DNA of 64,000 nt from Nitrosopumilus sp. (GTDB lineage: Archaea > Thermoproteota > Nitrososphaeria > Nitrososphaerales > Nitrosopumilaceae): the NCBI GenBank assembly GCA_965197525.1, contig OZ240211.1, positions 1,440,001 through 1,504,000 of the forward strand, given 5' to 3'. Below the pieces are notes generated by a model that saw only the letters and a program-made list of their open reading frames with translations, made no database searches and had not been told where the DNA came from. The position numbers were made by a program, and so were the translations under genes. Shown here piece after piece: positions 20,334 to 56,628 of this stretch (the first letter of the stretch is position 1; every line of letters begins with the position of its first letter).

Positions 20334-23300
20334 ATGAATACATTAAGAATTCATCATACTATGACAGTCATGGCCATTGTGGTAGTGACTGTATCTTTGT
20401 TACTTTTCCAGTACTATGATGTCAGTTTTGCGTCTGCCTATATGACTGACCCTGTGATCACGATAACTTACAGCCCCCCCCTCCACCATACACCTGTAAC
20501 GGTAACTACCTCAGAGATACAGCAGTCGGCAGCCAGTTTTCTGAACCGTGAGTACGGGCGAATCGACGTACTCAACCCGCAGTCCTATCCTGTAGTGGGC
20601 GGGGAGTGGACGATAAACTTTAGGACATACGGTACCCATAACCTAACAATCTCTGTAATAAACGGCACCACGTTTGGGGACTCTTCTCCTGACGACGTGG
20701 GGTTTGTGGGGGTATTGTGCGGCAACGACTCCATACTGGATGCTACAGCACATGATGGGATCATTACGTTTGAGGACTATCAGTGCGACGGCATCGCAAG
20801 CCTCGTGCTATCGGTTCACACCCCTGGCATACACGACATACATCTAAGCTTTGGTGCAGATACTGCGTACGCATCAAACAACGCGTATCCAAACTCCGTA
20901 GTGGAGATAAACAGCTCCACTGCAAACGGTCCCACGCTATCAGACTTTGACCGTTTCGGCTTCTCCGTTACTCCCATAGGCGACCTTGACGGCGACGGGG
21001 TGACAGACCTTGCAGTTGGTGCTGCTCAAGATGACGGCGGCGGATCAGACCGCGGCGCAGTACACATAATGTTTATGAATACAAACGGCACGGTAAACAG
21101 CACAGTAGAGATAAACGACTCCACTACAAACGGTCCCACGCTATCAGACGATGACTTTTTCGGCAGATCCGTTGCTGCCATAGGCGACCTTGACGGCGAC
21201 GGGGTGACAGACCTTGCAGTTGGTGCTGATCGAGATGACAACAGCGGATCAAACCGCGGCGCAGTACACATAATGTTTATGAATGCTGACGGCACGGTAA
21301 ACAGCACAGTAGAGATAAACGACTCCACTGCAAACGGTCCCACGCTATCAGACAATGACCGTTTCGGCGTCTCCGTTACTCCCATAGGCGACCTTGACGG
21401 CGACGGGGTGACAGACCTTGCAGTTGGTGCTAATCGAGATGACGACGGCGGGCTAGACCGCGGCGCAGTACACATAATGTTTATGAATACAAACGGTACG
21501 GTAGACAGCACAGTAGAGATAAACAGCTCCACTGCAAACGGTCCCACGCTATCAAACAGTGACTATTTCGGCTTCTCCGTTGCTGCCATAGGCGACCTTG
21601 ACGGCGACGGGGTGACAGACCTTGCAGTTGGTGCTCATCTAGATAACGGCGGCGGATCAAACCGCGGCGCAGTACACATAATGTTTATGAATACCGACGG
21701 CACGGTAGACAGCACAGTAGAGATAAACGACTCCACTGCAAACGGTCCCACGCTATCAGACGATGACTATTTCGGCGTCTCCGTTACTCCCATAGGCGAC
21801 CTTGACGGCGACGGGGTGACAGACCTTGCAGTTGGTGCTTATCAAGATGACGGCGACGGCGGATCAGACCGCGGCGCAGTACACATAATGTTTATGAATA
21901 CTGACGGCACGGTAGACAGCACAGTAGAGATAAACGACTCCACTGCAAACGGTCCCACGCTATCAAACATTGACTATTTCGGCTTCTCCGTTGCTTCCAT
22001 AGGCGACCTTGACGGCGACGGGGTGACAGACCTTGCAGTTGGTGCTTTTCTAGATGACAACGGCGGATCAGGACGCGGCGCCGTACATATAATCTTCATT
22101 AATGACATGAGAACTGCCGGAAACGGCTCTGTTGACAGCACAGTAGAGATAAACGACTCCACTGCAAACGGTCCCACGCTATCAAACAATGACCGTTTCG
22201 GCGTCTCCGTTACTCCCATAGGCGACCTTGACGGCGACGGGGTGACAGACCTTGCAGTTGGTGCTAGTCGAGATAACGAGCGGCGGACGAGACCACGGCA
22301 CCGTACACATAATGTTTATGAATGCTGACGGTACGGTAAACAGCACAGTAGAGATAAACGACTCCACTGCAAACGGTCCCACGCTATCAAACGATGACTA
22401 TTTCGGCATCTCCGTTGCTTCCATAGGCGACCTTGACGGCGACGGGGTGACAGACCTTGCAGTTGGTGCTTATGGAGATGACGACCGCGGATCAAGCCGC
22501 GGCGCAGTACACATAATGTTTATGAATACAAACGGCACGGTAAACAGCACAGTAGAGATAAACGACTCCACTGCAAACGGTCCCAGGCTATCGAGCAGTG
22601 ACTATTTCGGCTTCTCCGTTGCTTCCATAGGCGACCTTGACGGCGACGGGGTGACAGACCTCGCAGTTGGCGCTTATCAAGACGACGGCGGCGGATCAAA
22701 CCGCGGCGCAGTACACATAATGTTTATGAATATGGACGGCACGGTAGACAGCACAGTAGAGATAAACGACTCCACTGCAAACGGTCCCACGCTATCAAGC
22801 TTTGACAATTTCGGCATCTCCGTTGCTTCCATAGGCGACCTTGACGGCGACGGGGTGACAGACCTCGCAGTTGGCGCTTATCGAGATGACGACGGCGGCG
22901 GATCAGACCGCGGCGCAGTACACATAATGTTTATGAATGCTGACGGCACGGTAGACAGCACAGTAGAGATAAACGACTCCACTGCAAACGGTCCCACGCT
23001 ATCAAGCAATGACCGTTTCGGCGTCTCCGTTACTCCCATAGGCGACCTTGACGGCGACGGGGTGACAGACCTCGCAGTTGGTGCTCATCAAGACGACGAC
23101 GGCGGATCAAACCGCGGCGCAGTACACATAATGTTTATGAATGCTGACGGCACGGTAGACAGCACAGTAGAGATAAACGACTCCACTGCAAACGGTCCCA
23201 CGCTATCAAACAGTGACTATTTCGGCGTCTCCGTTGCTTCCATAGGCGACCTTGACGGCGACGGGGTGACAGACCTTGCAGTTGGTGCTAGTCGAGATAA

Positions 23301-26300
23301 CGACGGCGGACCAGACCGCGGCGCCATCAATGTCATATATCTTGACAAAGAGGTACTGGTCCGTGCCGTATCCTCTACAACCGCAGACGGTACCTACGGA
23401 TCAGGAGATACAGTAGACATTACCATCAAATTCTCAGAACCAGTCACCGTAACTGGGACACCTCAACTCGCACTTGATACCAATCCTTCAAGGCAGGGCA
23501 ACTATTCATCAGGCTCAGGCACTGACACCCTTACCTTCAAGTACGAGGTACAGACTGGAGATACATCTGCAGATCTCCAATATGTTTCAGAGAACCCATT
23601 GATGCTGGTGGAGGGAGTGTCGACTGTTACTGCCCTAAAAAGCCCGAGTGAGGATGCTGTCCCTACACTCCCGGATCCTGTAGTAATGTTTGACTTTAAC
23701 CCTCCAGGCGCATTCGGATCCCTTGGGCAAAACAAAGATATTGTAATTGGTACCACCGCCACCAACCAGCCCCCAACTATCAGCAGCATAACCGGCGACA
23801 CTACAATCAACGAGGGCGCATCAGGCACGCTCACGGGTACTGCCTCCGATTCTGACGGCACCATATCCTCGTACCTGTGGAGCGTGGATGATACGTCTAC
23901 TATCACGATCACGACTGGCGATGCGGCTATCCTGCAATACACTGCATCACAGGTATCCTCGAATACCCAAGTTACATTTACCCTCACTGTTACCGACGAC
24001 GACGGGGCCACGGCATCTGCCACCTACGATGTCACGGTAAACAATGTGCCAGTCCCCAACCAGTCCCCAACTATCAGCAGCATAACCGGCGACACTACAA
24101 TCAACGAGGGCGCATCAGGCACGCTCACGGGTACTGCCTCTGACTCTGATGGTACAATATCCACATACGCGTGGAGCGTGGATGACACATCTGTTATTAC
24201 GATAACGTCCGGTAACGCAGCAACCCTGCAGTACACTGCGTCACAGGTATCCTCAAACACCCAAGTTACATTTACCCTCACTGTTACTGACGACGACGGG
24301 GCCACGGCTTTTGACACCTACGATGTCACGGTAAACAATGTGCCAGTCCCCAACCAGTCCCCAACTATCAGCAGCATAACTGGCGACACTACAATCAACG
24401 AGGGCGCATCAGGCACGCTCACGGGTACTGCCTCTGATTCTGACGGTACAATATCCACATACGCGTGGAGCGTGGATGACACATCTGTTATTACGATAAC
24501 GTCCGGTAACGCAGCAACCCTGCAGTACACTGCGTCACAGGTATCCTCGGACACCCAAGTTACATTTACCCTCACTGTTACCGACGACGACGGGGCCACG
24601 GCTTTTGACACCTACGATGTCACGGTAAACAATGTGCCAGTCCCCAACCAGTCCCCAACTATCAGCAGCATAACTGGCGACACTACAATCAACGAGGGCG
24701 CATCAGGCACGCTCACGGGTACTGCCTCTGATTCTGACGGCACCATATCCTCGTACCTGTGGAGCGTGGATGACACATCTGTTATTACGATAACGTCCGG
24801 TAACGCAGCAACCCTGCAGTACACTGCGTCACAGGTATCATCTGACACCCAAGTTACATTTACCCTCACTGTTACTGACGACGACGGGGCCACGGCTTTT
24901 GACACCTATGACGTCACGGTAACCGATGTGCCAGTTCCCACGGTAACAGACACCACTCCGCCCCGCGTTGCCTTTATTGTTGACAGGACAGTAGAGATAA
25001 ACGACTCCACTGCAAACGGTCCCACGCTATCAAACAGTGACCGTTTCGGCGTCTCCGTTACTCCCATAGGCGACCTTGACGGCGACGGGGTGACAGACCT
25101 TGCAGTTGGTGCTGCTCGAGACGACGACGGCGGACTAGACCGCGGCGCAGTACACATAATGTTTATGAATACAAACGGCACGATAAACAGCACAGTAGAG
25201 ATAAACGACTCCACTGCAAACGGTCCCACGCTATCAAGCAATGACCGTTTCGGCGCCTCCGTTACTCCCATAGGCGACCTTGACGGCGACGGGGTGACAG
25301 ACCTTGCAGTTGGTGCTTATCAAGATAACGGCGACGGCGGATCAGACCGCGGCGCAGTACACATAATGTTTATGAATACTGACGGCACGATAAACAGCAC
25401 AGTAGAGATAAACAACTCCACTGCAAACGGTCCCAGGCTATCAGACGATGACAATTTCGGCAGATCCGTTGCTTCCATAGGCGACCTTGACGGCGACGGG
25501 GTGACAGACCTCGCAGTTGGTGCTTATCAAGATGACGGCGACGGCGGATCAGACCGCGGCGCAGTACACATAATGTTTATGAATACTGACGGTACGGTAG
25601 ACAGCACAGTAGAGATAAACGACTCCACTGCAAACGGTCCCACGCTATCAAGCAATGACCGTTTCGGCGCCTCCGTTACTCCCATAGGCGACCTTGACGG
25701 CGACGGGGTGACAGACCTCGCAGTTGGTGCTCAGGGAGATGACGACGGCGGATCAGACCGCGGCGCAGTACACATAATGTTTATGAATACTGACGGTACG
25801 GTAGACAGCACAGTAGAGATAAACAGCTCCACTGCAAACGGTCCCACGCTATCAAACAATGACAATTTCGGCAGATCCGTTGCTTCCATAGGCGACTTTG
25901 ACGGCGACGGGGTGACAGACCTCGCAGTTGGTGCTTATCAAGATGATAACGGCGGATCAGACCGCGGCGCAGTACACATAATGTTTATGAATACTGACGG
26001 CACGGTAGACAGCACAGTAGAGATAAACGACTCCACTGCAAACGGTCCCACGCTATCAGACAGTGACAAGTTCGGCGCCTCCGTTGCTTCCATAGGCGAC
26101 CTTGACGGCGACGGGGTGACAGACCTTGCAGTTGGTGCTTATCGAGATGACGACGGCGGGCGAGACCGCGGCGCCATCAATGTCATATATCTTGACAAGG
26201 AAGTAGAGCAAAACAAAGATATTGATCCCACCGCCCCCACGGTAACAGACACCACTCCGCCCCGCGTTGCCTCCATACTGCGTGGTACCCCTCTAGCTCA

Positions 26301-29300
26301 ATCCACAACTGATACCACCTTGGTGTTTGCTGTCACGTTTGATGAACCGGTAACCAACGTGGATGCTGCCGATTTTACAGTAACGGGCACCGGCACCGGC
26401 ACAATATCTGGCGTATCAGGTTCCGGTGCATCATACCGGGTAACAGTCGCAGTAGATAATGTTGGAACCATCGGCTTGGATATCGCACAAAACCACGACA
26501 TACAGGATACCGCAACCAACCGTTTGGCCAACCTGGCACCTACCGGCTCTGATCAGACCTACACAGTCACGGTAACAGACACCACTCCGCCCCGCGTTGC
26601 CTTCATTGTTGACAGGACAGTAGAGATAAACGACTCCACTGCAAACGGTCCCACGCTATCAGACTTTGACCGTTTCGGCGTCTCCGTTACTCCCATAGGC
26701 GACCTTGACGGCGACGGGGTGACAGACCTCGCAGTTGGTGCTAGTCGAGATGACGACGGCGGATCAGACCGCGGCGCAGTACACATAATGTTTATGAATG
26801 CTGACGGTACGGTAGACAGCACAGTAGAGATAAACAACTCCACTGCAAACGGTCCCACGCTATCAGACGATGACTATTTCGGCGCCTCCGTTGCTTCCAT
26901 AGGCGACCTTGACGGCGACGGGGTGACAGACCTTGCAGTTGGTGCTCATCGAGATGACGACGGCGGATCAGACCGCGGCGCAGTACACATAATGTTTATG
27001 AATGCTGACGGCACGATAAACAGCACAGTAGAGATAAACGACTCCACTGCAAACGGTCCCACGCTATCAAACAATGACCGTTTCGGCGTCTCCGTTGCTT
27101 CCATAGGCGACCTTGACGGCGACGGGGTGACAGACCTCGCAGTTGGTGCTTATCAAGATGACAACGGCGGAGAAGACCGCGGCGCAGTACACATAATGTT
27201 TATGAATGCTGACGGCACGATAAACAGCACAGTAGAGATAAACGACTCCACTGCAAACGGTCCCACGCTATCAGACGATGACTTTTTCGGCGCCTCCGTT
27301 ACTCCCATAGGCGACCTTGACGGCGACGGGGTGACAGACCTTGCAGTTGGTGCTCATCGAGATGACGACGGCGGATCAGACCGCGGCGCAGTACACATAA
27401 TGTTTATGAATACTGACGGCACGGTAGACAGCACAGTAGAGATAAACGACTCCACTGCAAACGGTCCCACGCTATCAAACAATGACAATTTCGGCAGATC
27501 CGTTGCTTCCATAGGCGACTTTGACGGCGACGGGGTGACAGACCTTGCAGTTGGCGCTCATGGAGACGACGACGGCGGATCAGACCGCGGCGCCGTACAC
27601 ATAATGTTTATGAATGCTGACGGCACGGTAGACAGCACAGTAGAGATAAACGACTCCACTACAAACGGTCCCACGCTATCAGACGATGACTTTTTCGGCG
27701 CCTCCGTTGCTTCCATAGGCGACCTTGACGGCGACGGGGTGACAGACCTCGCAGTTGGCGCTTATGGAGACGACGAGGGCGGATCAAGCCGCGGCGCCAT
27801 CAATGTCATATATCTTGACAAGGAAGTAGAGCAAAACAAAGATATTGATCCCACCGCCCCCACGGTAACAGACACCACTCCGCCCCGCGTTGCCTCCATA
27901 CTGCGTGGTACCCCTCTAGCTCAATCCACAACTGATACCACCTTGGTGTTTGCTGTCACGTTTGATGAGCCGGTAACCAACGTGGATGATGCTGACTTTA
28001 CAGTAACAGGCACCGGCACAATATCTGGCGTATCAGGTTCCGGTGCATCATACCGGGTAACAGTCACAGTAACCGCTAGTGGAACCATCGGCTTGGATAT
28101 CGCACAAAACCACGACATACAGGATGCTGCAACCAACGGTCTGACTGACCTGACAGTGATCGGCTCTAATGAGACCTACACAGTCAACCGGTTACCCGTA
28201 CTGAATAATATCTCACCGCAGACTGGAGATGAGCTTACACTCCTCACATTCACTGCTGAAGCAACTGATCCTGATGATAACGATGCCCGGACATACTCCC
28301 TTATCGAGCCGATACCTGACGGTGCCGCGATGGATACCAACACCGGAGTGTTCTCATGGACGCCAACTGAGGAACAGGATGGCCGTCACACCATAACCGT
28401 ACAGGTCTCTGATGGTAACGGAGGCACAGACTCGCAAAACGTCACAATAACTGTAACTGAGGTAAATCAGAATCCACGACTTGATCCCATAGGTGCACAG
28501 ACCATAGATGAGACAGACACGCTTAGGTTTACTGCAACAGCCCATGACGTCGACATATATCAAGGCTCTCCTAACTCTTTGAGATTCTCACTTGACGGGG
28601 ACATGCCACGTGGTGCATCAATCACCCGGGAAGGCTCGTTCTCTTGGAGGCCTGACCAGTCCCAGGACGGCGTACACTCCATTAATGTGACCGTCTCGGA
28701 TGGTAACGGTGGCACAGCATCTGAACTGGTATCAGTTACAGTAAATGACATAGCTCCACGTCTTGTATCTGTACGGGGCTCTGGCTCTTCTATAACGCTG
28801 ACATTCTCTGAGCCAGTCAAAATCAATGGAGCAGGCCTCAACGGATTTACAGTATCCTCTTCTTCTGGTAGTACAGTCACAGTGGAATCCATCACCGGAA
28901 ATGGCACAAACACCCTTACGTTACTACTTGACGGTTCACTGTCTCGTGGGGACACGCTCTCATACGACAGCGGTACAGGCGATGTTGTAGACGAGTCAGG
29001 CAAACCTTTGGAATCATTTGTTGATGCGGCCATACTGCTCAAGTCCAAAAAGTCAGGTACCGCACCACCGCCATCTGTGGATACACTTGAGATAAACGGC
29101 CAGAGTTACAATGTTCAAAACAGGGTAAACCATCATGCCACGCCGCTGGAGGTTGCAGTAGACCAACAACCCATATCCATGAGTTTTACGGCACACGACA
29201 GACTTGACATACTCTACTTTGCAGTATACCTGAACCTGCAAGATGATGACATATCATACACGAACAGTGATACATACGTGGAATACAACAGAGGCCAAAC

Positions 29301-29859
29301 CAACATAGTTGATCCTCATAACCTGTTCTCAGATGCCTCCATCACTATATCAACTGACCCTGATGATCGCAATAAAAAGACAGTCGCACTTGATATCACG
29401 TTTGCAGATGCGATAGGGAATACCAACATGGTAATCAGAACTTGGAACGCAGACCGTCAGTCTTCAATAGTCATAATAGTTGATGCGCTAAACATCATAC
29501 CCTCAAAAGTAGATCCAGAGCCCCAGGCAACAACGGAGGCAGACCCAGAGCCCCAAGTAGCAGAGGCGAACCCAGAACCCCGGTCACCTGCTGCAGTACC
29601 TGATAATCCAGAACCTGTGATTGAAACTTTTGATGATGACTCAGACTATGACCGTGCATTGCTTGTACTGCGCATGTGGTCTGGATTTGAGTCTGAGGTG
29701 GCAGACGACGGCCAACTGTTAGATGTCATGGGCCTGACTCACATGGGAGCAGACATACCTGCCTGGGTCATGACTGATCTTGCACCACTAGTGGTAAAAG
29801 GACTGATAACCCTAGATGAGTTCAGGGTTGCGTTACAGTACGTGATGGGGAATACCTGA
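20334..29859 (+). CDS. Giant multidomain surface protein/adhesin (about 3174 aa if repaired), interrupted by one extra base at 22280
   Basis: Signal-like N-terminus; 24 FG-GAP repeats (FGxSV..IGDLDGDGVTDLAVGA); 4 PKD/Ig-like repeats; 2 Ig-like TTPPRVAS domains; 2 cadherin-like domains; SwmB-like segment; C-terminal IPAWVM..GLITLDEFRVALQYV thaumarchaeal anchor-like motif. ORF pieces 20334-22328 and 22252-29859 join at GATAACGAGCGGC versus the normal GATAACGACGGC. Confidence 0.9.
20892..23355 (+). repeat. FG-GAP tandem array 1: 12 units of 204-207 nt
   Basis: 68-aa unit; unit 2 starts 21096 and unit 3 starts 21300 (period 204); unit 6 has a divergent end (HIIFINDMRTAGNGSV). Confidence 0.95.
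23764..24939 (+). repeat. Four tandem 294-nt (98-aa) PKD/Ig-like repeats
   Basis: Units start 23764, 24058, 24352 and 24646; NQxPTISSITGDTTINEG..TLTVTDDDGA. Confidence 0.95.
24985..26205 (+). repeat. FG-GAP tandem array 2: 6 units
   Basis: Same 204-207 nt unit; ends GAINVIYLDKEV. Confidence 0.95.
26614..27828 (+). repeat. FG-GAP tandem array 3: 6 units
   Basis: Same unit; part of a roughly 1.63-kb higher-order duplication with array 2. Confidence 0.95.
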
Positions 29860-44250: not shown

Positions 44251-45903
44251 ATGGCATCGATTCAACAAGGACCAAATGGGCCTGTACTTGTCCTCAAAGA
44301 GAGCGCGTTACAACAAAAAGGTAAAGATGCTCAACAAAATAACATTGCAGCAGCAAAACTAGTTGCACAACTCGTTAGAAGCAGTCTTGGTCCTAGAGGT
44401 TTAGACAAGATGCTCGTTGATTCCTTGGGCGATGTAACTATTACAAATGATGGCGCTACAATTCTCAAAGAGATTGATGTTCAACATCCTGCAGCCAAGA
44501 TGATGGTTGAAATTTCTAAAACCGTAGACAACGAGGTTGGCGATGGTACTACCTCTTCTGTTATATTTGGCGGTGCTTTGCTAGCTAGAGCAGAAGATCT
44601 TCTCAACAAGGATGTTCACTCTTCAACTATAATTGACGGTTATCAGGCTGCAGCAGACAAAACTCTTGAAATCTATTCTGAATTAGCAAAAAAGATCCAA
44701 CATGACGACCGCGAATCACTATTACAAATCGCTACAACAAGTATGCAATCAAAATTAGTATCTGAGGATAGTGATGCCCTCTCAAAAATTGTTGTTGATG
44801 CTGTTTTAAGCATTGTAGTTAAGAATGGTGATAATTACGTAGTTGATCTAGATAATATCAAAGTAGAGAAAAAATCAGGCGGCTCAATATCTGATACTCA
44901 AATTATTAAAGGAATTGTTCTTGATAAAGAGATTGTTCACAGTGGCATGCCTACAAAGACGGAGAATGCCAAAATTGCATTAATCAACTCTGCATTAGAG
45001 ATTGAAAAGACCGAATTGAGTGCAGAGATTAGAATATCTGACCCAACACAGATGCAGATGTTCCTAGAAGAAGAGAATAGAATGTTAAAGACGATGGTTG
45101 ACAAATTACATGATGTGGGTGCCAATGTCCTGATATGTCAAAAAGGAATTGACGATATCTCTCAGCACTACCTTGCAAAGTATGGTATTATGGCAGTACG
45201 TCGTGTCAAAGAGAGCGATATGACAAAACTTGCAAAGGCTACAGGTGGACGAGTAATAAACAACCTTGATGATCTTACTGAAAATGATCTTGGTCATGCT
45301 GATTTGGCACATCAAAAGAAGGTTGAATCTGACAAGTGGGTTTTCATTGAAGGGTGCAAACATCCGCTATCAGTCACTTTGCTGATTCGTGGTGGTACAC
45401 AGCGACTAATTGATGAAGTTGACCGCTCTATTCATGATTCTTTAATGGTAGTAAAAGACGTTATTGAAACACCTGCAATTGTTGCAGGCGGCGGTGCCCC
45501 AGAAGCATATGTGGCATCTTTGCTCAAAAATTGGGCTGATAGCTTTGATGGAAGAGAGCAGTTGGCAATTAAAAAATATGCTGAAGCATTAGAGACTATA
45601 CCACTTACCATTGCTGAAAATGCCGGAATGGATCCCATTGATACAATGGCTAATCTGCGAGCAAAACAGAACCAAAACCAAAAGTGGACTGGAATTGATG
45701 CTAGAAATATGAAGATTGCAGATATGATGCCACTAGGCGTTATAGAACCAATTACAGTAAAAGAGCAGATAATCAAATCTGCTACAGAGGCTGCATGCAT
45801 GATACTGCGAATTGATGATGTAATTGCAGTATCGGGCGGTCCTGGAGGTGGCGGCGGTCCTGGTGCCGGTGGTATGCCGCCTGGCATGCCTGGAATGGGC
45901 TAG
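44251..45903 (+). CDS. ths: Thermosome (group II chaperonin) subunit
   Basis: [23 protein letters not shown] and GGG motifs; Gly/Met/Pro-rich tail. Confidence 0.97.
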
Positions 45904-45953: not shown

Positions 45954-45998
45954 TCTGATACTGTACTGGCAGTCTAACTAAACTAATTATCTATCTAG

Positions 45999-46286
45999 GT
46001 AATTGTGTAATTTTTTGACGTGATTTTTAACCTTTAAAAATAATATTTTGATCTTAGGTTATCTGAAACCACGATTACAGTGTTTAATTATGTCCAACGA
46101 CACAGTCGAAGATCACTGGAAGCATAGATATGAAAAATTAGAGCGTCAGATGAAGGAAGAGATGGCCAAGAAGACAAAAAGATAGATAAATTGGAGGAAA
46201 TGGTAAACAGGTTGGAAGGACTGCTTGCCAATGCAGTTAACCAGATAAAGACAATTACACTTGAGATGAGTCGTGCAAAAGAGGCT
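45999..46286 (+). repeat. IS66-like left end (copy 1 of a roughly 287-bp direct repeat)
   Basis: Near-identical to 55943-56227; encodes the frameshifted coiled-coil MSNDTVEDHWKHRYEKLERQ..IDKLEEMVNRLE. Confidence 0.9.
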
Positions 46287-46320: not shown

Positions 46321-48009
46321 CTAATAATACTGATGCATCTGCCTCTGCTCTAACCCCTCTTGCTCAAAGTGGTTATGCGACTTGCCTCCGTCATGATGTG
46401 CATGAACTGTTCCGTCAATATGGCAATGTGTGTTATCAATCAAATCCTTGATAAACACATCATCCACGTTTAGCAGCATGTTGACAGTCTCAACTGCAGT
46501 TATCAGGACTTGCTGTTTTACAACTGCGGTCTCCATAATTTGATGGAGCGACATGTCAGACACTTTTCTTGTAGCAGCGTCTATCCCGCACCACTTGACG
46601 TTGCTATTAGACAGCGTTTGGAGTTGTGTAAATGTGTCAATTACATCCATTCCTATATTTTGGGCCAGTGTCAACGGTATCTGCTCAAGGGCGCTTGCAA
46701 ATCTTTGCATTCCGATCTGCTCCTTGCCGGGAACAGACAATGAGTGATCTTTAATCTCTTGCGCAATCAGCCATTCGACAGAGCCTGCACCGCGTACAAC
46801 AAATGGACTTTGAATAAAATTGCGTAGCACATAAAATGCGTTCAAGACATTCCTGTGGAATTCGTCAAGATAGCGCTTAGAGTTTGCCCTTAACAACAAA
46901 GTTACGGATTTTGGATTACTGTCATTGCTGCTCTCAATGAAGACCATGCTGTCACCCCCGACAGTTCTCTGATAGACATTCTTTGCAAGACCTAACTCAG
47001 CATCCGATATTTCATGTATACTCTTGCATGTTTTCGCGGCAGTTGCTTTTTCCAGCCACCACAGATCATTGTACTTTACACGACGCATCGAGATGATGCC
47101 ATGTTTTGCAAGTTTGGTTTGAACATACTCACTTACGCCCTTTCTTGACACCACTACGTTGGCTCCAGAGTCTACGATGCACCCTACTAGCGCAAGCAGG
47201 TCTGTATCCTCTTGGTCAATGAATGAGCCCATCTGGCTGGGGGAGGTAATCTCTATCTGAGATTCGGTCCTTGTCCTCATGGTCTCCAGTGGATCATTTA
47301 GCAGTAAAATTTTGGCATCAATAATGCTTTTGGGCATCGCAGAGCTGTCTATTGTCTTGTCAATGACTATGCCCCTGACTAGTTCGGTGTCAAGAATGCT
47401 ACCAAGCTTTTCCTCAATCTTTATGTCATCCACACTGATCTTTCCGTTCTGCAGATCAGCTACGCTACACACCGCATCAACGATGGTCTCAACGATTTGT
47501 TCAGGATTATCATGCAAGTCAAATATTGCTTTTCCTCCAAGACACGTAACTAGCAGACGCCTCATCATTTCCCTGTCTGTCCGGTTTGCCACCGTCTTAA
47601 TTTTTTCCAATACATTCAGGGCATATTCAAGGCTTTGCTCGTATGACTTTACAATTGCGGCTACAGGAAATTGCATTTTTAACAGCGTCTCGGCTTGGCC
47701 GATCAGACTACCTATCAGGACAGATGCGGATGTCGTGCCATCTCCAACATGGGTGTCAACGATATTTACAGCGTCCACAACAGACTTGCCTGCGGGATGA
47801 AGAACATCTGTCTTTCTTAAAAATGCACCGCCGTGGCCTGTTATCGTCTCTTCCCCAAGTATGTCAATATACATTTTTTCCATGCCGCGCGGCCCCAGAG
47901 ACGTCTTTATGATATCAGTGACAAGTCTTCCTGACATCAGGTTGTATTTTTGTGAGTCCTGCAGTCCAACACGTGAAATATCACCATCGAGAAGATCAGG
48001 ATATTTCAT
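46321..48009 (-). CDS. Divergent thermosome-like chaperonin with His-rich C-terminal tail
   Basis: TSLGPRGMEKM, GDGTTS and IDKTI motifs; ends HCHIDGTVHAHHDGGKSHNHF..MHQYY. Confidence 0.9.
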   Translation of the reverse strand: MKYPDLLDGDISRVGLQDSQKYNLMSGRLVTDIIKTSLGPRGMEKMYIDILGEETITGHGGAFLRKTDVLHPAGKSVVDAVNIVDTHVGDGTTSASVLIGSLIGQAETLLKMQFPVAAIVKSYEQSLEYALNVLEKIKTVANRTDREMMRRLLVTCLGGKAIFDLHDNPEQIVETIVDAVCSVADLQNGKISVDDIKIEEKLGSILDTELVRGIVIDKTIDSSAMPKSIIDAKILLLNDPLETMRTRTESQIEITSPSQMGSFIDQEDTDLLALVGCIVDSGANVVVSRKGVSEYVQTKLAKHGIISMRRVKYNDLWWLEKATAAKTCKSIHEISDAELGLAKNVYQRTVGGDSMVFIESSNDSNPKSVTLLLRANSKRYLDEFHRNVLNAFYVLRNFIQSPFVVRGAGSVEWLIAQEIKDHSLSVPGKEQIGMQRFASALEQIPLTLAQNIGMDVIDTFTQLQTLSNSNVKWCGIDAATRKVSDMSLHQIMETAVVKQQVLITAVETVNMLLNVDDVFIKDLIDNTHCHIDGTVHAHHDGGKSHNHFEQEGLEQRQMHQYY

Positions 48010-48192: not shown

Positions 48193-49782
48193 TCAAAGTT
48201 TGCTGTCACTCGTTATGACATCGTCAGGTCCCGGAGTGTCGGGCGTGCTAGATGCTGTAAGTCCGGAACCGTCATTCTCCTTGAAATGCTTCAGATCCTC
48301 TCCTGTGATTACGTCCTCTTCTGGAGGCACATAATCCCGTATATCGTGTCTTGCCTTTCCTGGGTACTTGTCTTGTGTCACAAGTGCTACAATCACAAAT
48401 AGCGCAATCCCGATGGCAGGTGCTATCATGGCCTCTATTCCCGCCAGCTCCTCAGGCGTGATAAAGAACATAATCAGCCTGACGGCCGAGCCTGTGATAA
48501 GGCACGCCATGGCAGCAGGCATGTTTGCCTTTTTCCAGAACAGGCCAAACGTTAGCGGTCCAAACGCTCCTGCAAGCACAATGTCAAATGCCAGTACAAG
48601 ATAAATTCCAGGGGCCGGTGCAAGATATCCGATGGTTGTCCCAGCTATCATCATCGGCACAAGTACGATACGGGTAACATTGAGCAGTTTGCGATCGCTC
48701 CAGTTTGCCTGCCCCATCCATCGTCGCCGAATTATTCTTTGCGTCAAGTTTCTTGATATGACACTTGATATTGCCAGCAGCCCTCCACTGGCAGTAGACA
48801 TGGACGCGCCGATAACTCCCATCAGTATGGCCGCCCCTATTGCAAACGGTAAGAACTGTGTGGATAGTATAGGAAGCGCCAGCGCCGGATCGGTGTCACC
48901 TGGCAGGAAATAGAATGCCACTATTCCTAACATACTTGTTGGAATTATCGTAAACATTGTCAGCATGCCTCCCATGAATGCTCCTCTTTGGGCAGTCTTG
49001 GGATTTTTGGCAGAGAATACACGTTCCATAAAGTCAAGTGCAATGATATCCCCTAGCCCCAATGCAAGAAGGGCACCCCAGTTGATTAACGCACCGTTTG
49101 CAATATCATACAGTCCTGAAAGATCTAGGAACTCTGGCGGAGCTGCACTGTATATGATGTCCCATGGAACTTCTGAAAAACCGCCAAAGAAGAATAGGAA
49201 TGCGGCCCAAAACGATCCTATGGCAAGATATACCTGAAATAGATTGGTATAAGCTGATGCAAACAGTCCGCCTGCAATTGTGTAGGCAACTATTACACTA
49301 GCTGCAATCGTTATTCCCCAAAAGTAATCTATGCCAAAAACAACCTGTAGGATAAATCCACTGGCAGCCAGATTACCTGCAACAAGAATGAGAAAGCCGA
49401 TGATCAGGAGAATGCTGGAGATTCCTTCAGCGCCGTTGCCGAATCTTCTGAAATAAAAATCAGGTAGCGTAATCATCGACATCTTGTTCAGGGGCTTGGC
49501 ATAAAATATGGCCACTATAAACAGACACACTCCAAGACCTAGTGGAACAACTGCCCCTGCCCAAAATCCAAACTCAAAGACCAGTGCGATATTTCCAAGC
49601 GACGAGTTCCCGTCTACTGCCTGAGCTGCAAGCATTGTTCCCACCATAAATAAAGGCAGACTTTTTCCTGCAACTATCAGTCTCTTGCCGCTATGTCTGA
49701 CTAGCCTGCCTGCAAATACTCCAACTACAAGTGTAATAATTATAAAAGCTGCAACTGCGATACCAAAACCGTCCAGTTCCAT
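48193..49782 (-). CDS. Sodium:solute symporter (SSS) family transporter
   Basis: About 13 hydrophobic segments; AGKSLP, TLPDF..RFG, YTIAGGLFA..YT, ERVFSAK and SMSTASG motifs. Confidence 0.9.
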   Translation of the reverse strand: MELDGFGIAVAAFIIITLVVGVFAGRLVRHSGKRLIVAGKSLPLFMVGTMLAAQAVDGNSSLGNIALVFEFGFWAGAVVPLGLGVCLFIVAIFYAKPLNKMSMITLPDFYFRRFGNGAEGISSILLIIGFLILVAGNLAASGFILQVVFGIDYFWGITIAASVIVAYTIAGGLFASAYTNLFQVYLAIGSFWAAFLFFFGGFSEVPWDIIYSAAPPEFLDLSGLYDIANGALINWGALLALGLGDIIALDFMERVFSAKNPKTAQRGAFMGGMLTMFTIIPTSMLGIVAFYFLPGDTDPALALPILSTQFLPFAIGAAILMGVIGASMSTASGGLLAISSVISRNLTQRIIRRRWMGQANWSDRKLLNVTRIVLVPMMIAGTTIGYLAPAPGIYLVLAFDIVLAGAFGPLTFGLFWKKANMPAAMACLITGSAVRLIMFFITPEELAGIEAMIAPAIGIALFVIVALVTQDKYPGKARHDIRDYVPPEEDVITGEDLKHFKENDGSGLTASSTPDTPGPDDVITSDSKL

Positions 49783-50358: not shown

Positions 50359-50886
50359 ATGCAAATGCCTGCAAAAGGATATGCCACAATTGGTTTGAAA
50401 CCTGCAATTCTAAAAAAGCTGCACGAAGTGACAGACAAAAGCTATCCTGGAATGTTCCTGCCCAGCACACTAATTATCATGATGAATGAGATCAAGAACG
50501 GGTCATACTCTGTAGAGTTGCACAACATTAGACTGGATTTGTCAGGTCACTACAACACTATAACCATCAGATTGGATGTGCAACAATGGCTAGAAGAAAA
50601 TCACAAGAAGTTGAGTGCAGAGTATGAGGAGAGATACAGGATAAAATCTTTTACAAAATTCGTGAGCTACTTTATTATCAACGCACTTGAGTCAAAGCTT
50701 AACAGTCAAAACCACACCATCAACCTAAAAGAGTCAGACTACGAATGGCTGCAAAAAGAGTACAATAAACACAAGGAAGGCATTACCGACTTTCAAGAGG
50801 TTCCAAGCTTTGACAAGTTTGCGGACATTTACATTAATAATTTGTTTGAGAAGATCAAGGCTGCAAAAAAGATCTTGACGATATAA
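50359..50886 (+). CDS. Hypothetical protein, possibly DNA-binding
   Basis: 175 aa with three similar short segments (YATIGLK, YNTITIR, NHTINLK), each followed by a helix. Confidence 0.65.
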   Translation: MQMPAKGYATIGLKPAILKKLHEVTDKSYPGMFLPSTLIIMMNEIKNGSYSVELHNIRLDLSGHYNTITIRLDVQQWLEENHKKLSAEYEERYRIKSFTKFVSYFIINALESKLNSQNHTINLKESDYEWLQKEYNKHKEGITDFQEVPSFDKFADIYINNLFEKIKAAKKILTI

Positions 50887-51258: not shown

Positions 51259-51531
51259 TTAGAGTGGAACCATTGTATCAATCAATCGTGCGTTAGTGAC
51301 TTGTCCATCTTTTTCCTGCATCTCAAGGTCTACCGTATATTTTAGAGAGTTCAGCATGAAATTAACCTGAATGTCCCATGCCTCTCTAGTTCCTTTTTCA
51401 GGTACTGCAAACGTCTCGTTGACTCTAAAGTCACTTACGTCTCCATACAATGCATTGATCACTCTTTTGGATTCTCGATATATGTCGTCATTCGTACTTA
51501 CTTTTTGCATGGTTATACTACATATACTCAA
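51259..51531 (-). CDS. Small hypothetical protein
   Basis: About 83-90 aa; likely start ATG 51510 (MQKVSTNDDIYRES). Confidence 0.65.
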   Translation of the reverse strand: MSICSITMQKVSTNDDIYRESKRVINALYGDVSDFRVNETFAVPEKGTREAWDIQVNFMLNSLKYTVDLEMQEKDGQVTNARLIDTMVPL

Positions 51532-53535: not shown

Positions 53536-54294
53536 CTAGTTCAATAAAAACAGGTCGGATTTCAGCCCAACTGTAAATATGATGTTTATTCCGACAACCA
53601 GCGTTACACCAGCTATGGCGTATCTGACATACTTGGCGGCAAGATGAATTTTTGGCAGCAATAACATAAATGAGATTCCCAAAACACCACTGGCAAGGGA
53701 CATGCCAACTATGCTGCCAATACCAAACAGGACTAGGAAGTAAACCACAATGTCAAAACTACCCATTGTGGATGCAGCAAGCGCTACAATACTGCCGCTT
53801 CCTGCAAGGCCGTGAATGCAACCTATTATGTATGACTTGTGGCCGTGCTTGTGATCCGTATTGTGCGTGTGGGGATGGGTGTGAGAGATTCCGTTTGGAT
53901 GCTTGTGTGAATGTGTATGTTTTTGCCTTAGAATGCTTTTGTTAGCGGCTGTCATAACCCCCAAAAATATCAGCATAGAACCCACTATAACTTCCGCACT
54001 CAAAAAGAAAGTGTCAGATATACTCAATGAGAGACCTGCAATCAGCAGGCCGATCAATACGATGCTGGATGTATGCCCCATTCCCCACAGCATGCCTTTG
54101 AAGGAAGAGAAGACTGTCAGGATTTTTAGATTCGTTTTTTTCGAGGTACGGTTGTTGTTATCGTTTAGAACCTGTGTAGAGACCGCACTGATATGATCAG
54201 GCTCAAAAGCATGTACCAGTCCGATCACAAGACCTGCAACGAGTATCAAGAAAGGATTGTTTGCTTGTAATATTTCAATCAACACATCAATCAT
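53536..54294 (-). CDS. Ni/Co permease, UreH/RcnA/HupN-like
   Basis: GLVHAFEPDH, WGMGH and IHGLAGSG motifs; His-rich loop HTHSHKHPNGISHTHPHTHNTDHKHGH. Confidence 0.85.
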   Translation of the reverse strand: MIDVLIEILQANNPFLILVAGLVIGLVHAFEPDHISAVSTQVLNDNNNRTSKKTNLKILTVFSSFKGMLWGMGHTSSIVLIGLLIAGLSLSISDTFFLSAEVIVGSMLIFLGVMTAANKSILRQKHTHSHKHPNGISHTHPHTHNTDHKHGHKSYIIGCIHGLAGSGSIVALAASTMGSFDIVVYFLVLFGIGSIVGMSLASGVLGISFMLLLPKIHLAAKYVRYAIAGVTLVVGINIIFTVGLKSDLFLLN

Positions 54295-54767
54295 TACAAG
54301 GTACCCCCGGACGGCGGTTCTGATTGAATGAAGGGATATTCGTTGATATGGATGGGTGCTGTGACCAAAATTGTCTTGACATGATCGTTGTAATGAGCAT
54401 CAATATTGTTGCCATCACCATCACCATCACCATCATCAGATACAGCACCTGCATCATTTGCAATAATCGTAAAGGTCAGCTCCCTTAGGCTCTCAGGAAC
54501 GCCAATCATGACTTGATGCGGCAACAGAATCTTTGGAATATGGTTTTGGATTTCATCGACTGCCTTGCCTTCATTCAGTGAGAGTATAACATATGCAACA
54601 AACAGTTCCAAGACTTGGTCTACGTTTAGCCTCATATTATTTAGAAGACTGTCTTTGATCTGCTGAACAGATGCTAGAAATATCGATTCATCAGACGCGT
54701 CATAATGAAATACCCTGATAAACGACTCGGTGTCCGGATCTCCTTGTACGGAGACTTTGATCTCCAT
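54294..54767 (-). CDS. Urease gamma-subunit-like protein (divergent)
   Basis: MRLNVDQVLEL..SLNEGKAVDEI..ILLPHQVMIGVPESLRELTF resembles UreA 'LN.PE..DGKSV.ELM..VMEGVPEM'; start and stop overlap both neighbours. Confidence 0.6.
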   Translation of the reverse strand: MEIKVSVQGDPDTESFIRVFHYDASDESIFLASVQQIKDSLLNNMRLNVDQVLELFVAYVILSLNEGKAVDEIQNHIPKILLPHQVMIGVPESLRELTFTIIANDAGAVSDDGDGDGDGNNIDAHYNDHVKTILVTAPIHINEYPFIQSEPPSGGTL

Positions 54768-55882
54768 TAACTTCTCTCAGGTATTTTAGAGGTCGAATTA
54801 CCAAAACTGTATGTGTTTCCAGTTCCCCGATAATCGTTAGGCCTTACCGGATCTCCTCCATCAAGCCCTCGCTTTGTTAGTGATAATCCAGCTAAAAGCT
54901 CTATAACCAGTCTTTGTCCCAGTCCAGATGTAATGCCTCCATTGTAAGAACTGTTATCGCTTACGTCGTATGCAGGTGAGATCTCTACTAGATCCATTGC
55001 AAATCTGTCAGGATCAAATGACTTTGATAGCAGTCGTATCATTCTAATCCCTTCCCTTGATGTAAGGCCGTTTGGCTCAGGCTCGCCGGTACCTGGTGCA
55101 TAAGCAGGATCAAAAGAGTCGATATCCCAACTAAGGTACACTGCATCAGTCCCGTCATTTGCCCTGTCTGCTATCTCTTTGGCAATGTAATCAATTCCCA
55201 GTTCTTCAACATCAAGCATTGTAAACCATTGAAAGTCTTGATCCGCCATCCATTTGTACAGATCACGGCCAGGCCAGTATCCTCTTGGACCCACTAGAGA
55301 GTAGTTTCTTCCCTTCAGACAGCCCATTTCCATTATTCTTCTGATATGTGCACCATGGTCGTATTTGAAACCTGTCAGGCCTTGGGGGGCACAATCTGCG
55401 TGGGTATCAAAGTGAATCATACCAATGTTCTTGTATTTTTTTGCAAAAGCCCGAACATTTGCATAAGTAATAGAATGATCCCCTCCAAGCATTACAGGAA
55501 TGCCATCTGCCTCTAACACCTCTTTGACCTTCAGGGTCATTCTTTTGTGCGACTCTATAACATCGCCTGGCGAGACTATGACATCACCATAGTCAACTGT
55601 TCTGAAAGTGCCAAACGGATCTGCACCCGTCTCGATATTGAACCTCTCAAATGGTGGGGAGGGCACAGTTGATGCCGCCCTTATTGCCCTTGGACCGTAT
55701 CGCGCACCAGGACGAATGGTTGTGCCAAAATCAAATGGTTCTCCGATAATTGCAACATCAGGTTTTGCCTGTAGTAACTCTTTGTGGTTTTTTATCAATG
55801 GAAGATGCAAAAATGTATTAATTCCTACAAATGGTGCAACATCTGCACCCTGAAAATCCTCACCGTAAAATTCTGCACCCAT
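54767..55882 (-). CDS. Ureohydrolase (agmatinase/guanidino-hydrolase family)
   Basis: GTTIRPGARYGP, GGDHS, FDTHAD and WDIDSFDPAYAPGTG with a full binuclear-metal ligand set; GPRGYWP subfamily motif. Confidence 0.92.
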   Translation of the reverse strand: MGAEFYGEDFQGADVAPFVGINTFLHLPLIKNHKELLQAKPDVAIIGEPFDFGTTIRPGARYGPRAIRAASTVPSPPFERFNIETGADPFGTFRTVDYGDVIVSPGDVIESHKRMTLKVKEVLEADGIPVMLGGDHSITYANVRAFAKKYKNIGMIHFDTHADCAPQGLTGFKYDHGAHIRRIMEMGCLKGRNYSLVGPRGYWPGRDLYKWMADQDFQWFTMLDVEELGIDYIAKEIADRANDGTDAVYLSWDIDSFDPAYAPGTGEPEPNGLTSREGIRMIRLLSKSFDPDRFAMDLVEISPAYDVSDNSSYNGGITSGLGQRLVIELLAGLSLTKRGLDGGDPVRPNDYRGTGNTYSFGNSTSKIPERS

Positions 55883-55942: not shown

Positions 55943-56560
55943 GTAATTGCATAGTTTTTTGAAGTGATTTTTAACCTTAAATAATATTTTGATCTTAGGT
56001 TATCTGAAACCACGATTACAGTGTTTAATTATGTCCAACGACTCAACCGAAGATCATTGGAAGCATAGATATGAAAAATTAGAGCGTCAGATAAAGGAAG
56101 AGATGGCCAAGAAGACAAAAAGATAGATAAATTGTAGGAAATGGTAAACAAGTTGGAAGGACTGCTTACCAATGCAGTTAACCAGATAAAGACAATTACA
56201 CTTTAGATGAATAGTGCAAAAGAGGCTTCATTCTTGCCCTCATCAACAGGCTCAAAGGAGAGAAATACAAGCATTGCAACAGGATGCTCAAGAGGATCAG
56301 AAGAGAGAAAGGCCACCTGTTTACGTTACTTGAGGTTGAAAGAATGAGTGACATGACAACTCTGTAGAGAGGGAGAGGGGGCATCAGACAGTGCGTCATA
56401 CTGCGCAATAACAGCTATGGGAGCAGGTCCGAAGAATGGGCATCGGCCATAGTAGTGTTGATGAGTGTAAAACAAACCTGCAAGGCAAAGAACAATAATT
56501 TGTTCGATGATGTAATGCGCATGAATTTGTTCAAAACGTGTCAAAAAACTACCTAGTTGC
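55943..56560 (+). mobile_element. Mini-IS66 (618 bp): left end fused to transposase C-terminal remnant and right end
   Basis: 55943-56227 repeats the left end. 56230-56540 reads NRMLKRIRREKGHLFTLLEV..GIRQCVILRNNSYGSRSEEWASAIVVLMSVKQTCK, homologous to the 3344-3730 remnant. Confidence 0.85.
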
Positions 56561-56628
56561 CTATCTAGTTATTTCCCTACACTAATATCACTTTCCTGAA
56601 AGCTTAACTATTCTGATCTCATAATTTA

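Follow-up and report, generated by a model that had tools for sequence, protein, structure and literature searches.

A ureohydrolase, a urease-gamma paralogue and a NicO-type permease form a conserved gene unit in ammonia-oxidising archaea, most likely the core of an accessory module of the urea/urease island

Why would the gene of an arginase-fold ureohydrolase overlap, stop to start, with the genes of a urease-subunit-like protein and of a nickel-type permease? This question is raised by a locus of Nitrosopumilus sp. (GenBank assembly GCA_965197525.1) that lies within positions 1,440,001 to 1,504,000 of contig OZ240211.1. This stretch of 64,000 nucleotides (nt) is called the window here, and window positions count from its first letter; the genome consists of one contig of 2.21 Mb, termed C1. 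The three genes are on the minus strand. They encode a ureohydrolase of 371 residues that belongs to a "GTGE" subfamily of the arginase fold (54767–55882), a paralogue of urease gamma (UreA) of 157 residues that we name UreA-prime (54294–54767), and a nickel/cobalt permease of the NicO superfamily of 252 residues (53536–54294). The original prediction, made from the letters of the window alone, had read them as a candidate nickel-dependent pathway for guanidino nitrogen. Our analysis indicates that the archaeal urea/urease island most likely includes a conserved accessory module with these three genes as its core.

A conserved and selected three-gene unit

All three open reading frames (ORFs) of the unit are intact. 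Both junctions read TAATG, i.e. the stop codon and the next start codon have one base in common, at 54767 and at 54294; coordinates and overlaps match the original prediction exactly. In a scan of species-representative genomes 262 were found to encode a relative of the enzyme, and the best 80 of these, with 84–99% identity, were kept as related loci. The UreA-like ORF begins at most 10 nt from the stop of the enzyme gene in 66 of these 80 loci, and the permease gene is directly next in most of them; a linked permease was found in 91 loci. Nine of the 80, Nitrosopelagicus among them, have the enzyme and permease genes without the UreA-like gene in the middle. The gene order of the unit is retained in two families of ammonia-oxidising archaea (AOA) and in dozens of genera. 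Thus the adjacency across related loci shows that the arrangement is not due to chance. Here and below, absences refer to the genomes sampled and to the queries used.

The enzyme has a mean column identity of 93% across genera, and the UreA-like protein one of 33%. The ratio of nonsynonymous to synonymous substitution rates (dN/dS) lies at 0.004–0.025 for the enzyme, a sign of extreme purifying selection; the UreA-like gene (about 0.24) and the permease (0.13–0.18) are selected as well. These values bear on the counter-case set out with the original prediction, in which the UreA-like gene and the permease gene are the decaying remains of a deleted urease cluster beside an independent agmatinase. 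The lack of ureB and ureC in the window agrees with such a history, as does the apparent transposition of the 9.9-kb block to which the unit belongs (see below). But the three ORFs are all intact, the dN/dS values of both neighbours are those of selected genes, the order is held in two AOA families and dozens of genera, and the UreA-prime family has a conserved N-terminal hairpin of its own. Since all three genes are under selection, we consider this scenario extremely improbable and, on the selection and conservation data, ruled out.

In the literature on AOA we found mentions of "SpeB/agmatinase" only, and no account of a unit of enzyme, UreA-like protein and permease. Its recurrence across AOA, its dN/dS values and its TAATG overlaps confirm that the three genes are a conserved, selected and coupled unit, as had been proposed. 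The module is real, conserved and hitherto undescribed.

Relation to urease

The window contains neither ureB nor ureC, as noted in the original prediction; the single ureC of the genome is at C1:426843, about 1.07 Mb away. The genome does hold a complete urease set, split over two sites: ureABC with the gene of a 676-residue DUR3-like symporter at 425–428 kb, and ureEFGD at 257–260 kb. The three-gene unit is at 1.494 Mb. The UreA-like gene had been taken for an orphan, which cannot be maintained with ureABC and ureEFGD present elsewhere in the genome and with the unit joining the urease island in many AOA. Since the unit adjoins urease in these other AOA, the "orphan" state is a peculiarity of the rearranged genome of the window. 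The two urease sites (locus L143) are about 167 kb apart, and a TnpB-like gene, with a Cas12f1-like TNB domain, flanks ureA; this genome appears heavily rearranged.

The urease operon is at most 8 kb away in 29 of the 80 related loci, and at least 21 of the sampled genomes have ureC at a distance of about 15 kb or less from the unit. In a second family of AOA, which is probably that of the soil AOA, the order is SSF529 (a symporter described below), enzyme and UreA-prime, a thermosome paralogue, then ureA-ureB-ureC-orf90. In a third family the genes of the enzyme, of a UreA-like protein and of the permease are joined with ureABCEFGD in a single string of overlapping genes on the same strand.

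The distribution of the enzyme was determined in a sample of 120 Nitrosopumilaceae genomes. This sample includes one unpublished genome (G092, locus L030) that is positive for all components, so that each count is lower by one without it; none of the conclusions depends on this genome alone. The enzyme is present in 52 of the 120 genomes, and 50 of these 52 have ureC; the other two are genomes of 76% and 85% completeness. Conversely, ureC was not found in 54 genomes, and only these two incomplete ones have the enzyme. Among the 66 urease-positive genomes 50 have the enzyme and 16 are without the whole unit. In at least 10 genera of mixed urease status the enzyme occurs only in the members with ureC, barring the two incomplete metagenome-assembled genomes just mentioned.

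The enzyme, its UreA-like partner and the metal

The ureohydrolase matches the Pfam family PF00491 (Arginase) with 269.6 bits for a cut-off of 22 (E 4e-80). The six His/Asp ligands of the binuclear metal site are intact (GGDHS, DTHAD and SWDID) and invariant in 25 orthologues. Because of this family membership and of the intact metal site, a urea-releasing chemistry is to be expected. We hold it quite likely that the enzyme makes urea for urease.

Such an enzyme might instead do housekeeping work in polyamine or arginine metabolism, as a third enzyme of the agmatinase or arginase type; it would then take no external substrate, and urease would recycle the urea formed on the side. The arginase-family genes of AOA, in two to three copies, are indeed all annotated as SpeB or agmatinase (PMC10753782, PMC6790972, PMC8573960, PMC11131427), and the NCBIfam agmatinase models are the best, yet sub-threshold, matches to the enzyme. 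But it scores only 154.5 bits against the agmatinase equivalog TIGR01230 (cut-off 174.3), and two other arginase-family paralogues that pass this cut-off are already present in the genome (214.8 and 177.4 bits). This bears out the earlier view that the enzyme is not a classical agmatinase. Moreover the enzyme is found in only two of the 54 genomes without detected ureC, though all of them would need polyamines. Its residue 267 is a Glu, which is rare: among the 133 nearest representatives of 50%-identity clusters two have Glu at this position and 79 have Thr. The tight pairing with a dedicated symporter across two archaeal phyla, described below, also argues against a housekeeping role, which we consider quite improbable.

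The enzyme was placed by phmmer scores against PDB sequences. The nearest solved structure is the guanidinobutyrase GbuA of Pseudomonas aeruginosa (3nio; E 2.7e-50), followed by two Ni2+-dependent guanidine hydrolases, GdmH of Synechocystis (Sll1077; 7esr/7oi1) and that of Nitrospira inopinata (9fek), with E 8e-49 and 3e-47 respectively; the guanidinopropionase GpuA of P. aeruginosa (3nip) and proclavaminate amidinohydrolase (PAH) are also among the nearest. The similarity to the metformin hydrolases is weaker (E 3e-34), and SpeB agmatinases score far lower.

The marker residues of guanidinases are Thr105, His222, Trp313 and Glu344 (N. inopinata numbering; PMC11410670). Of these the window enzyme has Thr, His and Glu; in place of the Trp it has Glu267 (GTGE, not GTGW), which leaves the marker set incomplete. 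The original prediction had also concluded that the enzyme is not a canonical guanidinase. This conclusion stands, but the residue given as the reason does not: the marker Trp had been placed in a "YDW" motif, where GdmH itself reads PPYDISD, whereas the marker is the W of GTGW (Trp313). Glu267 is invariant in 25 orthologues. The enzyme also has a conserved C-terminal extension of about 40 residues, and the loop that follows DxHxD (YDHGAHIRR) is like that of GbuA and GpuA and unlike that of GdmH; it resembles the loop of guanidino-acid hydrolases. The HG..RR pattern of this loop is common to the enzyme and to GbuA and GpuA, and the pairwise similarity to these is moderate. The window enzyme differs from them by a Glu for the Thr of GTGT, by its C-terminal extension and by the nickel permease and UreA-like partner genes that accompany it. 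Judged by its sequence, then, the enzyme is neither a canonical agmatinase nor a canonical guanidinase. The acidic Glu267 could pair with a cationic guanidinium, so that free guanidine or small alkylguanidines are kept as possible substrates.

The comparison with the guanidine hydrolases can be extended to the genomic surroundings. Both have the arginase fold, the six metal ligands and at least three of the four marker residues, and in both cases there is a genomic link to nickel handling and a proposed urea product that would be fed to urease in a nitrifier. Besides the invariant GTGE and the GbuA/GpuA-like loop, the window system differs by the lack of HypA/HypB-type chaperones, by a sodium:solute symporter (SSF) in place of an APC permease, and by the riboswitch, since no Rfam family of any kind, guanidine riboswitches included, reached the gathering score within the window. 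A study of guanidine use found no guanidine-degradation genes in AOA (PMC11410670).

UreA-prime is below the cut-offs of the urease gamma models, with 19.2 bits for PF00547 (Urease_gamma; cut-off 23.9) and 20.8–20.9 bits for the NCBIfam models (cut-offs 82–123). Its AlphaFold2 (AF2) model (pLDDT 87) has the UreA fold with an extra N-terminal beta-hairpin. Each of the top 17 Foldseek matches in the PDB is a urease gamma subunit or, in fused ureases, the gamma domain (TM-scores 0.74–0.79). The few residues that are invariant in the alignment of UreA-prime are the classic UreA motifs LN..E, VMIGVPE and PI. UreA-prime is therefore like UreA in its fold and in the three most conserved motifs of sequence, and unlike it in its sub-cut-off Pfam score, its added hairpin, its fast evolution (the 33% mean column identity given above), its position behind a ureohydrolase gene and its coexistence with a genuine ureA. 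In the window copy there is in addition an acidic/His insert, specific to the lineage, that spans roughly 25 residues (about 105–130). The genuine ureA of this genome (144.6 bits) sits with ureB and ureC at C1:425–428 kb, where UreA-prime is not encoded, and a genuine ureA is always present besides UreA-prime. One locus (L150) has an intermediate UreA-like form without the hairpin, 32% identical to true UreA (tblastn with the UreA of the window genome as query), in an operon that also holds a genuine ureA. Because this intermediate exists, UreA-prime evidently arose by duplication of ureA, as far as can be read from these sequences.

UreA-prime tracks the enzyme, not urease. In the family sample it is present in 46 genomes, all 46 of them enzyme-positive, and it is directly behind the enzyme gene in every copy whose surroundings were inspected. 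The unit stays together in at least nine genomes in which urease is more than 90 kb off (90 kb to 1.3 Mb), the window genome included.

The permease passes the cut-off of PF03824 (NicO) marginally (28.7 bits for 27.7). It has about six transmembrane segments, an HX4DH motif (HAFEPDH) at the first of them, and a central His-rich loop with 11 His in 35 residues. HAFEPDH or near variants are found in all 109 inspected members of the permease family, and each has a loop with 9–13 His. Like the NiCoT/NicO permeases (HoxN, NixA, UreH-like, RcnA-like) the window permease is polytopic, carries HX4DH, matches PF03824 and is linked to a nickel-enzyme island; unlike them it is short and has the central His-rich loop. 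RcnA-type efflux proteins also show a short architecture with a central His-rich loop. Standalone or unlinked permeases form a separate clade (support 100/100; 16 rows, one of them linked), and the operon-linked copies are mostly outside it. A second copy of the His-loop permease, 60–77% identical to the operon copy, is at C1:2061502–2062291 (L138); it is spread over three frames with an internal stop and looks like a pseudogene.

The permease slot behind the UreA-like gene is occupied by two non-orthologous NicO-type families, depending on the lineage. A gene of the classical HoxN type (RHGVDIDH; 71.9 bits) takes this position, in place of the window-type permease, in one genus of Nitrosopumilaceae (G109) and in soil AOA. 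Two different NicO-type families in the same slot support a requirement for nickel or cobalt, and bear out a link of the operon to these metals, of which the original prediction had put forward nickel. The His-tailed chaperonin of the module, described below, belongs to the same contextual evidence on metal. With respect to metal insertion, no HypA was found above cut-off in the genome and UreG is its sole strong CobW-family match, so that UreEFGD is the only recognisable nickel-insertion system. PF04955 (HupE/UreJ) gave no match in the genome search; a six-frame search of the genome with PF03824 missed the operon's own permease and is uninformative.

In two Nitrosopumilaceae loci (L032, 1919–2089, and L033, 1131–1283) the gene after the UreA-like one is of neither permease type. 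This ORF has 50–56 residues with a CxxC...C...H pattern, and an ORF 42% identical to it is present in the window genome at C1:1178677–1178826.

In known operons the genes of nickel-dependent ureohydrolases are accompanied by those of a nickel importer and of a substrate transporter and by urea genes (PMC11399263, PMC10927577), and nickel has been argued to be necessary for resonance-stabilised guanidines (PMC10927577). The operons of metformin and dimethylguanidine hydrolases (MfmAB/MefH/DmgH, with hypAB and hupE/ureJ) have their logic in common with the window system: an arginase-fold hydrolase, a non-catalytic partner, a nickel importer and a substrate transporter, near urea genes (PMC11399263, PMC10927577). 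But in AOA the partner is a urease-gamma paralogue and not a degenerate second ureohydrolase, the permease is of the NicO and not of the HupE/UreJ type, and the module is ancient and vertically conserved, not recently evolved. From this context, and by analogy with GdmH and metformin hydrolase, the operon permease would supply nickel (or cobalt) and the enzyme would probably be metallated with it.

Several observations weigh against this assignment of metal and partners. Mn enzymes bind their metal with this very set of His/Asp ligands, and sequence cannot separate nickel from manganese. The direction of transport is not readable from sequence either; the nearest named protein clusters of the permease carry both uptake and efflux names, and nickel import is inferred from context. 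In haloarchaea the orthologues of the enzyme have neither a permease gene nor a UreA-like gene beside them. A standalone permease paralogue is also present in genomes that are negative for urease and for the enzyme. Among the 52 enzyme-positive genomes of the family, the His-loop permease family is missing from eight and UreA-prime from six; in their present form, UreA-prime and the permease are not indispensable. Finally, where the unit heads a urease operon, both could equally serve urease.

These points lead to an alternative explanation, in which an ordinary Mn-dependent guanidino-acid or agmatine-like hydrolase is co-regulated with urease, the permease brings nickel for urease, and UreA-prime acts in urease as a second kind of gamma subunit or as a factor for its assembly or regulation. 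The strict nesting of the unit within urease-positive genomes is compatible with it, and so is the arrangement in one lineage (f5), where the enzyme gene and ureA flank the permease and UreA-prime within a single operon. UreA-prime moreover holds the motifs most conserved in genuine UreA, the haloarchaeal orthologues manage without both partners, and the best solved relative is GbuA, usually described as a Mn enzyme. However, in at least nine complete or near-complete genomes the partners stay behind the enzyme at 90 kb to 1.3 Mb from urease, and UreA-prime occurs only in enzyme-positive genomes, directly behind the enzyme gene where the locus was inspected. In addition, urease does not need the unit, as indicated by the 16 urease-positive genomes of the family that are without it, and a genuine ureA is always there too. 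We regard a Mn enzyme with partners in the service of urease as rather unlikely.

The wider module and a proposed pathway

The gene of a sodium:solute symporter, SSF529 (48193–49782, minus strand; PF00474), is part of the wider module. SSF529 is distinct from the DUR3-like urea symporter of the genome: it is 23% identical to this 676-residue SSF of the urea locus and 37% identical to the SSF beside the enzyme orthologue of Haloarcula. Of the 52 enzyme-positive genomes of the family 50 have SSF529, and so does one further genome, which is 60% complete. In soil AOA it adjoins the enzyme; an SSS transporter clustered with an "agmatinase" near urease has been reported there (PMC11131427). Outside AOA the enzyme is closest to "agmatinase family proteins" of haloarchaea, with 47% identity and with GTGE and the C-terminal extension in common. 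The haloarchaeal orthologue adjoins a symporter in Haloarcula and Halalkalicoccus, and ureBCAGDEF in Natronorubrum. That symporter and enzyme are paired in two archaeal phyla speaks most strongly for an imported substrate, and SSF529 is the candidate importer.

Next to SSF529 is the gene of a paralogue of the thermosome, the group II chaperonin (46321–48009, minus strand; PF00118). The C-terminal tail of this paralogue, H.HIDGTVHAH.DGGK.HNHFEQEGLEQRQMH.YY, is almost invariant in 51 related loci; it stands in place of the Gly/Met-rich tail of the canonical thermosome encoded nearby (44251–45903). Of the 52 enzyme-positive genomes 47 have an orthologue, as has one further genome (60% complete), and in soil AOA the gene is between enzyme–UreA-prime and ureABC. 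Enzyme, SSF529 and thermosome paralogue are all missing in 67 of the 120 genomes.

Two small conserved proteins of no known family travel with the module; neither gave a Pfam or NCBIfam match even at E 10. The first, of 175 residues (50359–50886, plus strand), is found in 65 of the 80 related loci, and in soil AOA it is encoded beside SSF529 with 52–56% identity. By eye, its N-terminus resembles a ribbon-helix-helix DNA-binding motif. The second, of 90 residues (51259–51531, minus strand), belongs to a family of ORFs of 84–85 residues present in most related loci, and has matches (tblastn, 42–50% identity) directly after ureC in the soil AOA loci L146–L148.

The haloarchaeal orthologues of the enzyme are encoded on megaplasmids (pNG700 of Haloarcula marismortui, L141, and a plasmid of Natronorubrum bangense, L142), with a PhoU/AbrB-type regulator alongside. 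Further neighbours in Haloarcula are a formamidase, a TCP-1 paralogue, an APC permease and a universal stress protein, and these surroundings look like a neighbourhood for the scavenging of small nitrogen compounds. The TCP-1 paralogue is 25% identical to the His-tailed paralogue of AOA and was not counted as the same component.

The module block of the window, 9.9 kb long, is bounded by 288-nt direct repeats that are 94–96% identical. The left copy (45999–46286, plus strand) is preceded by the 8-bp sequence CTATCTAG at 45991–45998. On the right, an element at 55943–56568 (plus strand) consists of the repeat copy (55943–56227) and roughly 330 nt more, with an imperfect inverted terminus and CTATCTAG at 56561–56568. 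Imperfect inverted termini and CTATCTAG are thus found on both outer sides of the block, and partial copies of the repeat are present elsewhere in the genome, at 86387–86534 and 2174709–2175015. The three-gene unit is inverted relative to its neighbours when compared with other Nitrosopumilaceae. The direct repeats, the inverted termini and the paired CTATCTAG suggest that the block moved as one unit; it looks transposed. Elsewhere in the window, the region 20334–29859 has 48–54% G+C, compared with 33–43% in the rest, and carries plus-strand ORFs of 664 and 2535 residues. It is possibly a foreign or surface-protein island.

The components can be assembled into the following pathway. SSF529 would import a guanidino compound, which the GTGE ureohydrolase would split into urea and an amine; urease would then convert the urea to ammonia for energy and nitrogen. 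The operon permease would provide the nickel (or cobalt) with which the enzyme is probably loaded. UreA-prime, a duplicated urease gamma, may have been recruited as a non-catalytic helper of the enzyme. This is the least certain step, and the role could be in assembly, in metal loading via the Ure accessory proteins, or in tethering to urease. For the chain as a whole, i.e. a metal-loaded (probably nickel) hydrolase making urea from an imported guanidino compound for urease, we incline slightly to a positive answer.

In the activation complex of urease, UreD is in contact with the gamma domain (PMC10121161), which makes an adaptor role of UreA-prime toward the Ure machinery conceivable. In a bolder version, UreA-prime would let the arginase-fold enzyme mimic urease to UreD/F/G and to the His-tailed thermosome, or dock it for the channelling of urea, and AOA worldwide would oxidise guanidine-type nitrogen, possibly guanidine itself with Glu267 for Trp. 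We put this version forward as a speculation that is unlikely to hold in full.

AOA are among the most abundant nitrifiers of oceans and soils, and the substrates accepted for them are ammonia and urea, plus cyanate in one organism. The module described here is as conserved as urease: 50 of the 66 urease-positive Nitrosopumilaceae in the sample have it, about three quarters, and so do soil AOA. It points to a further source of organic nitrogen for AOA, filed under "agmatinase" in current surveys. If the enzyme is nickel-dependent, the newly recognised nickel ureohydrolases would extend to archaea, with a new equipment in which a recruited urease subunit and a metal-tailed chaperonin would stand in for HypA/HypB.

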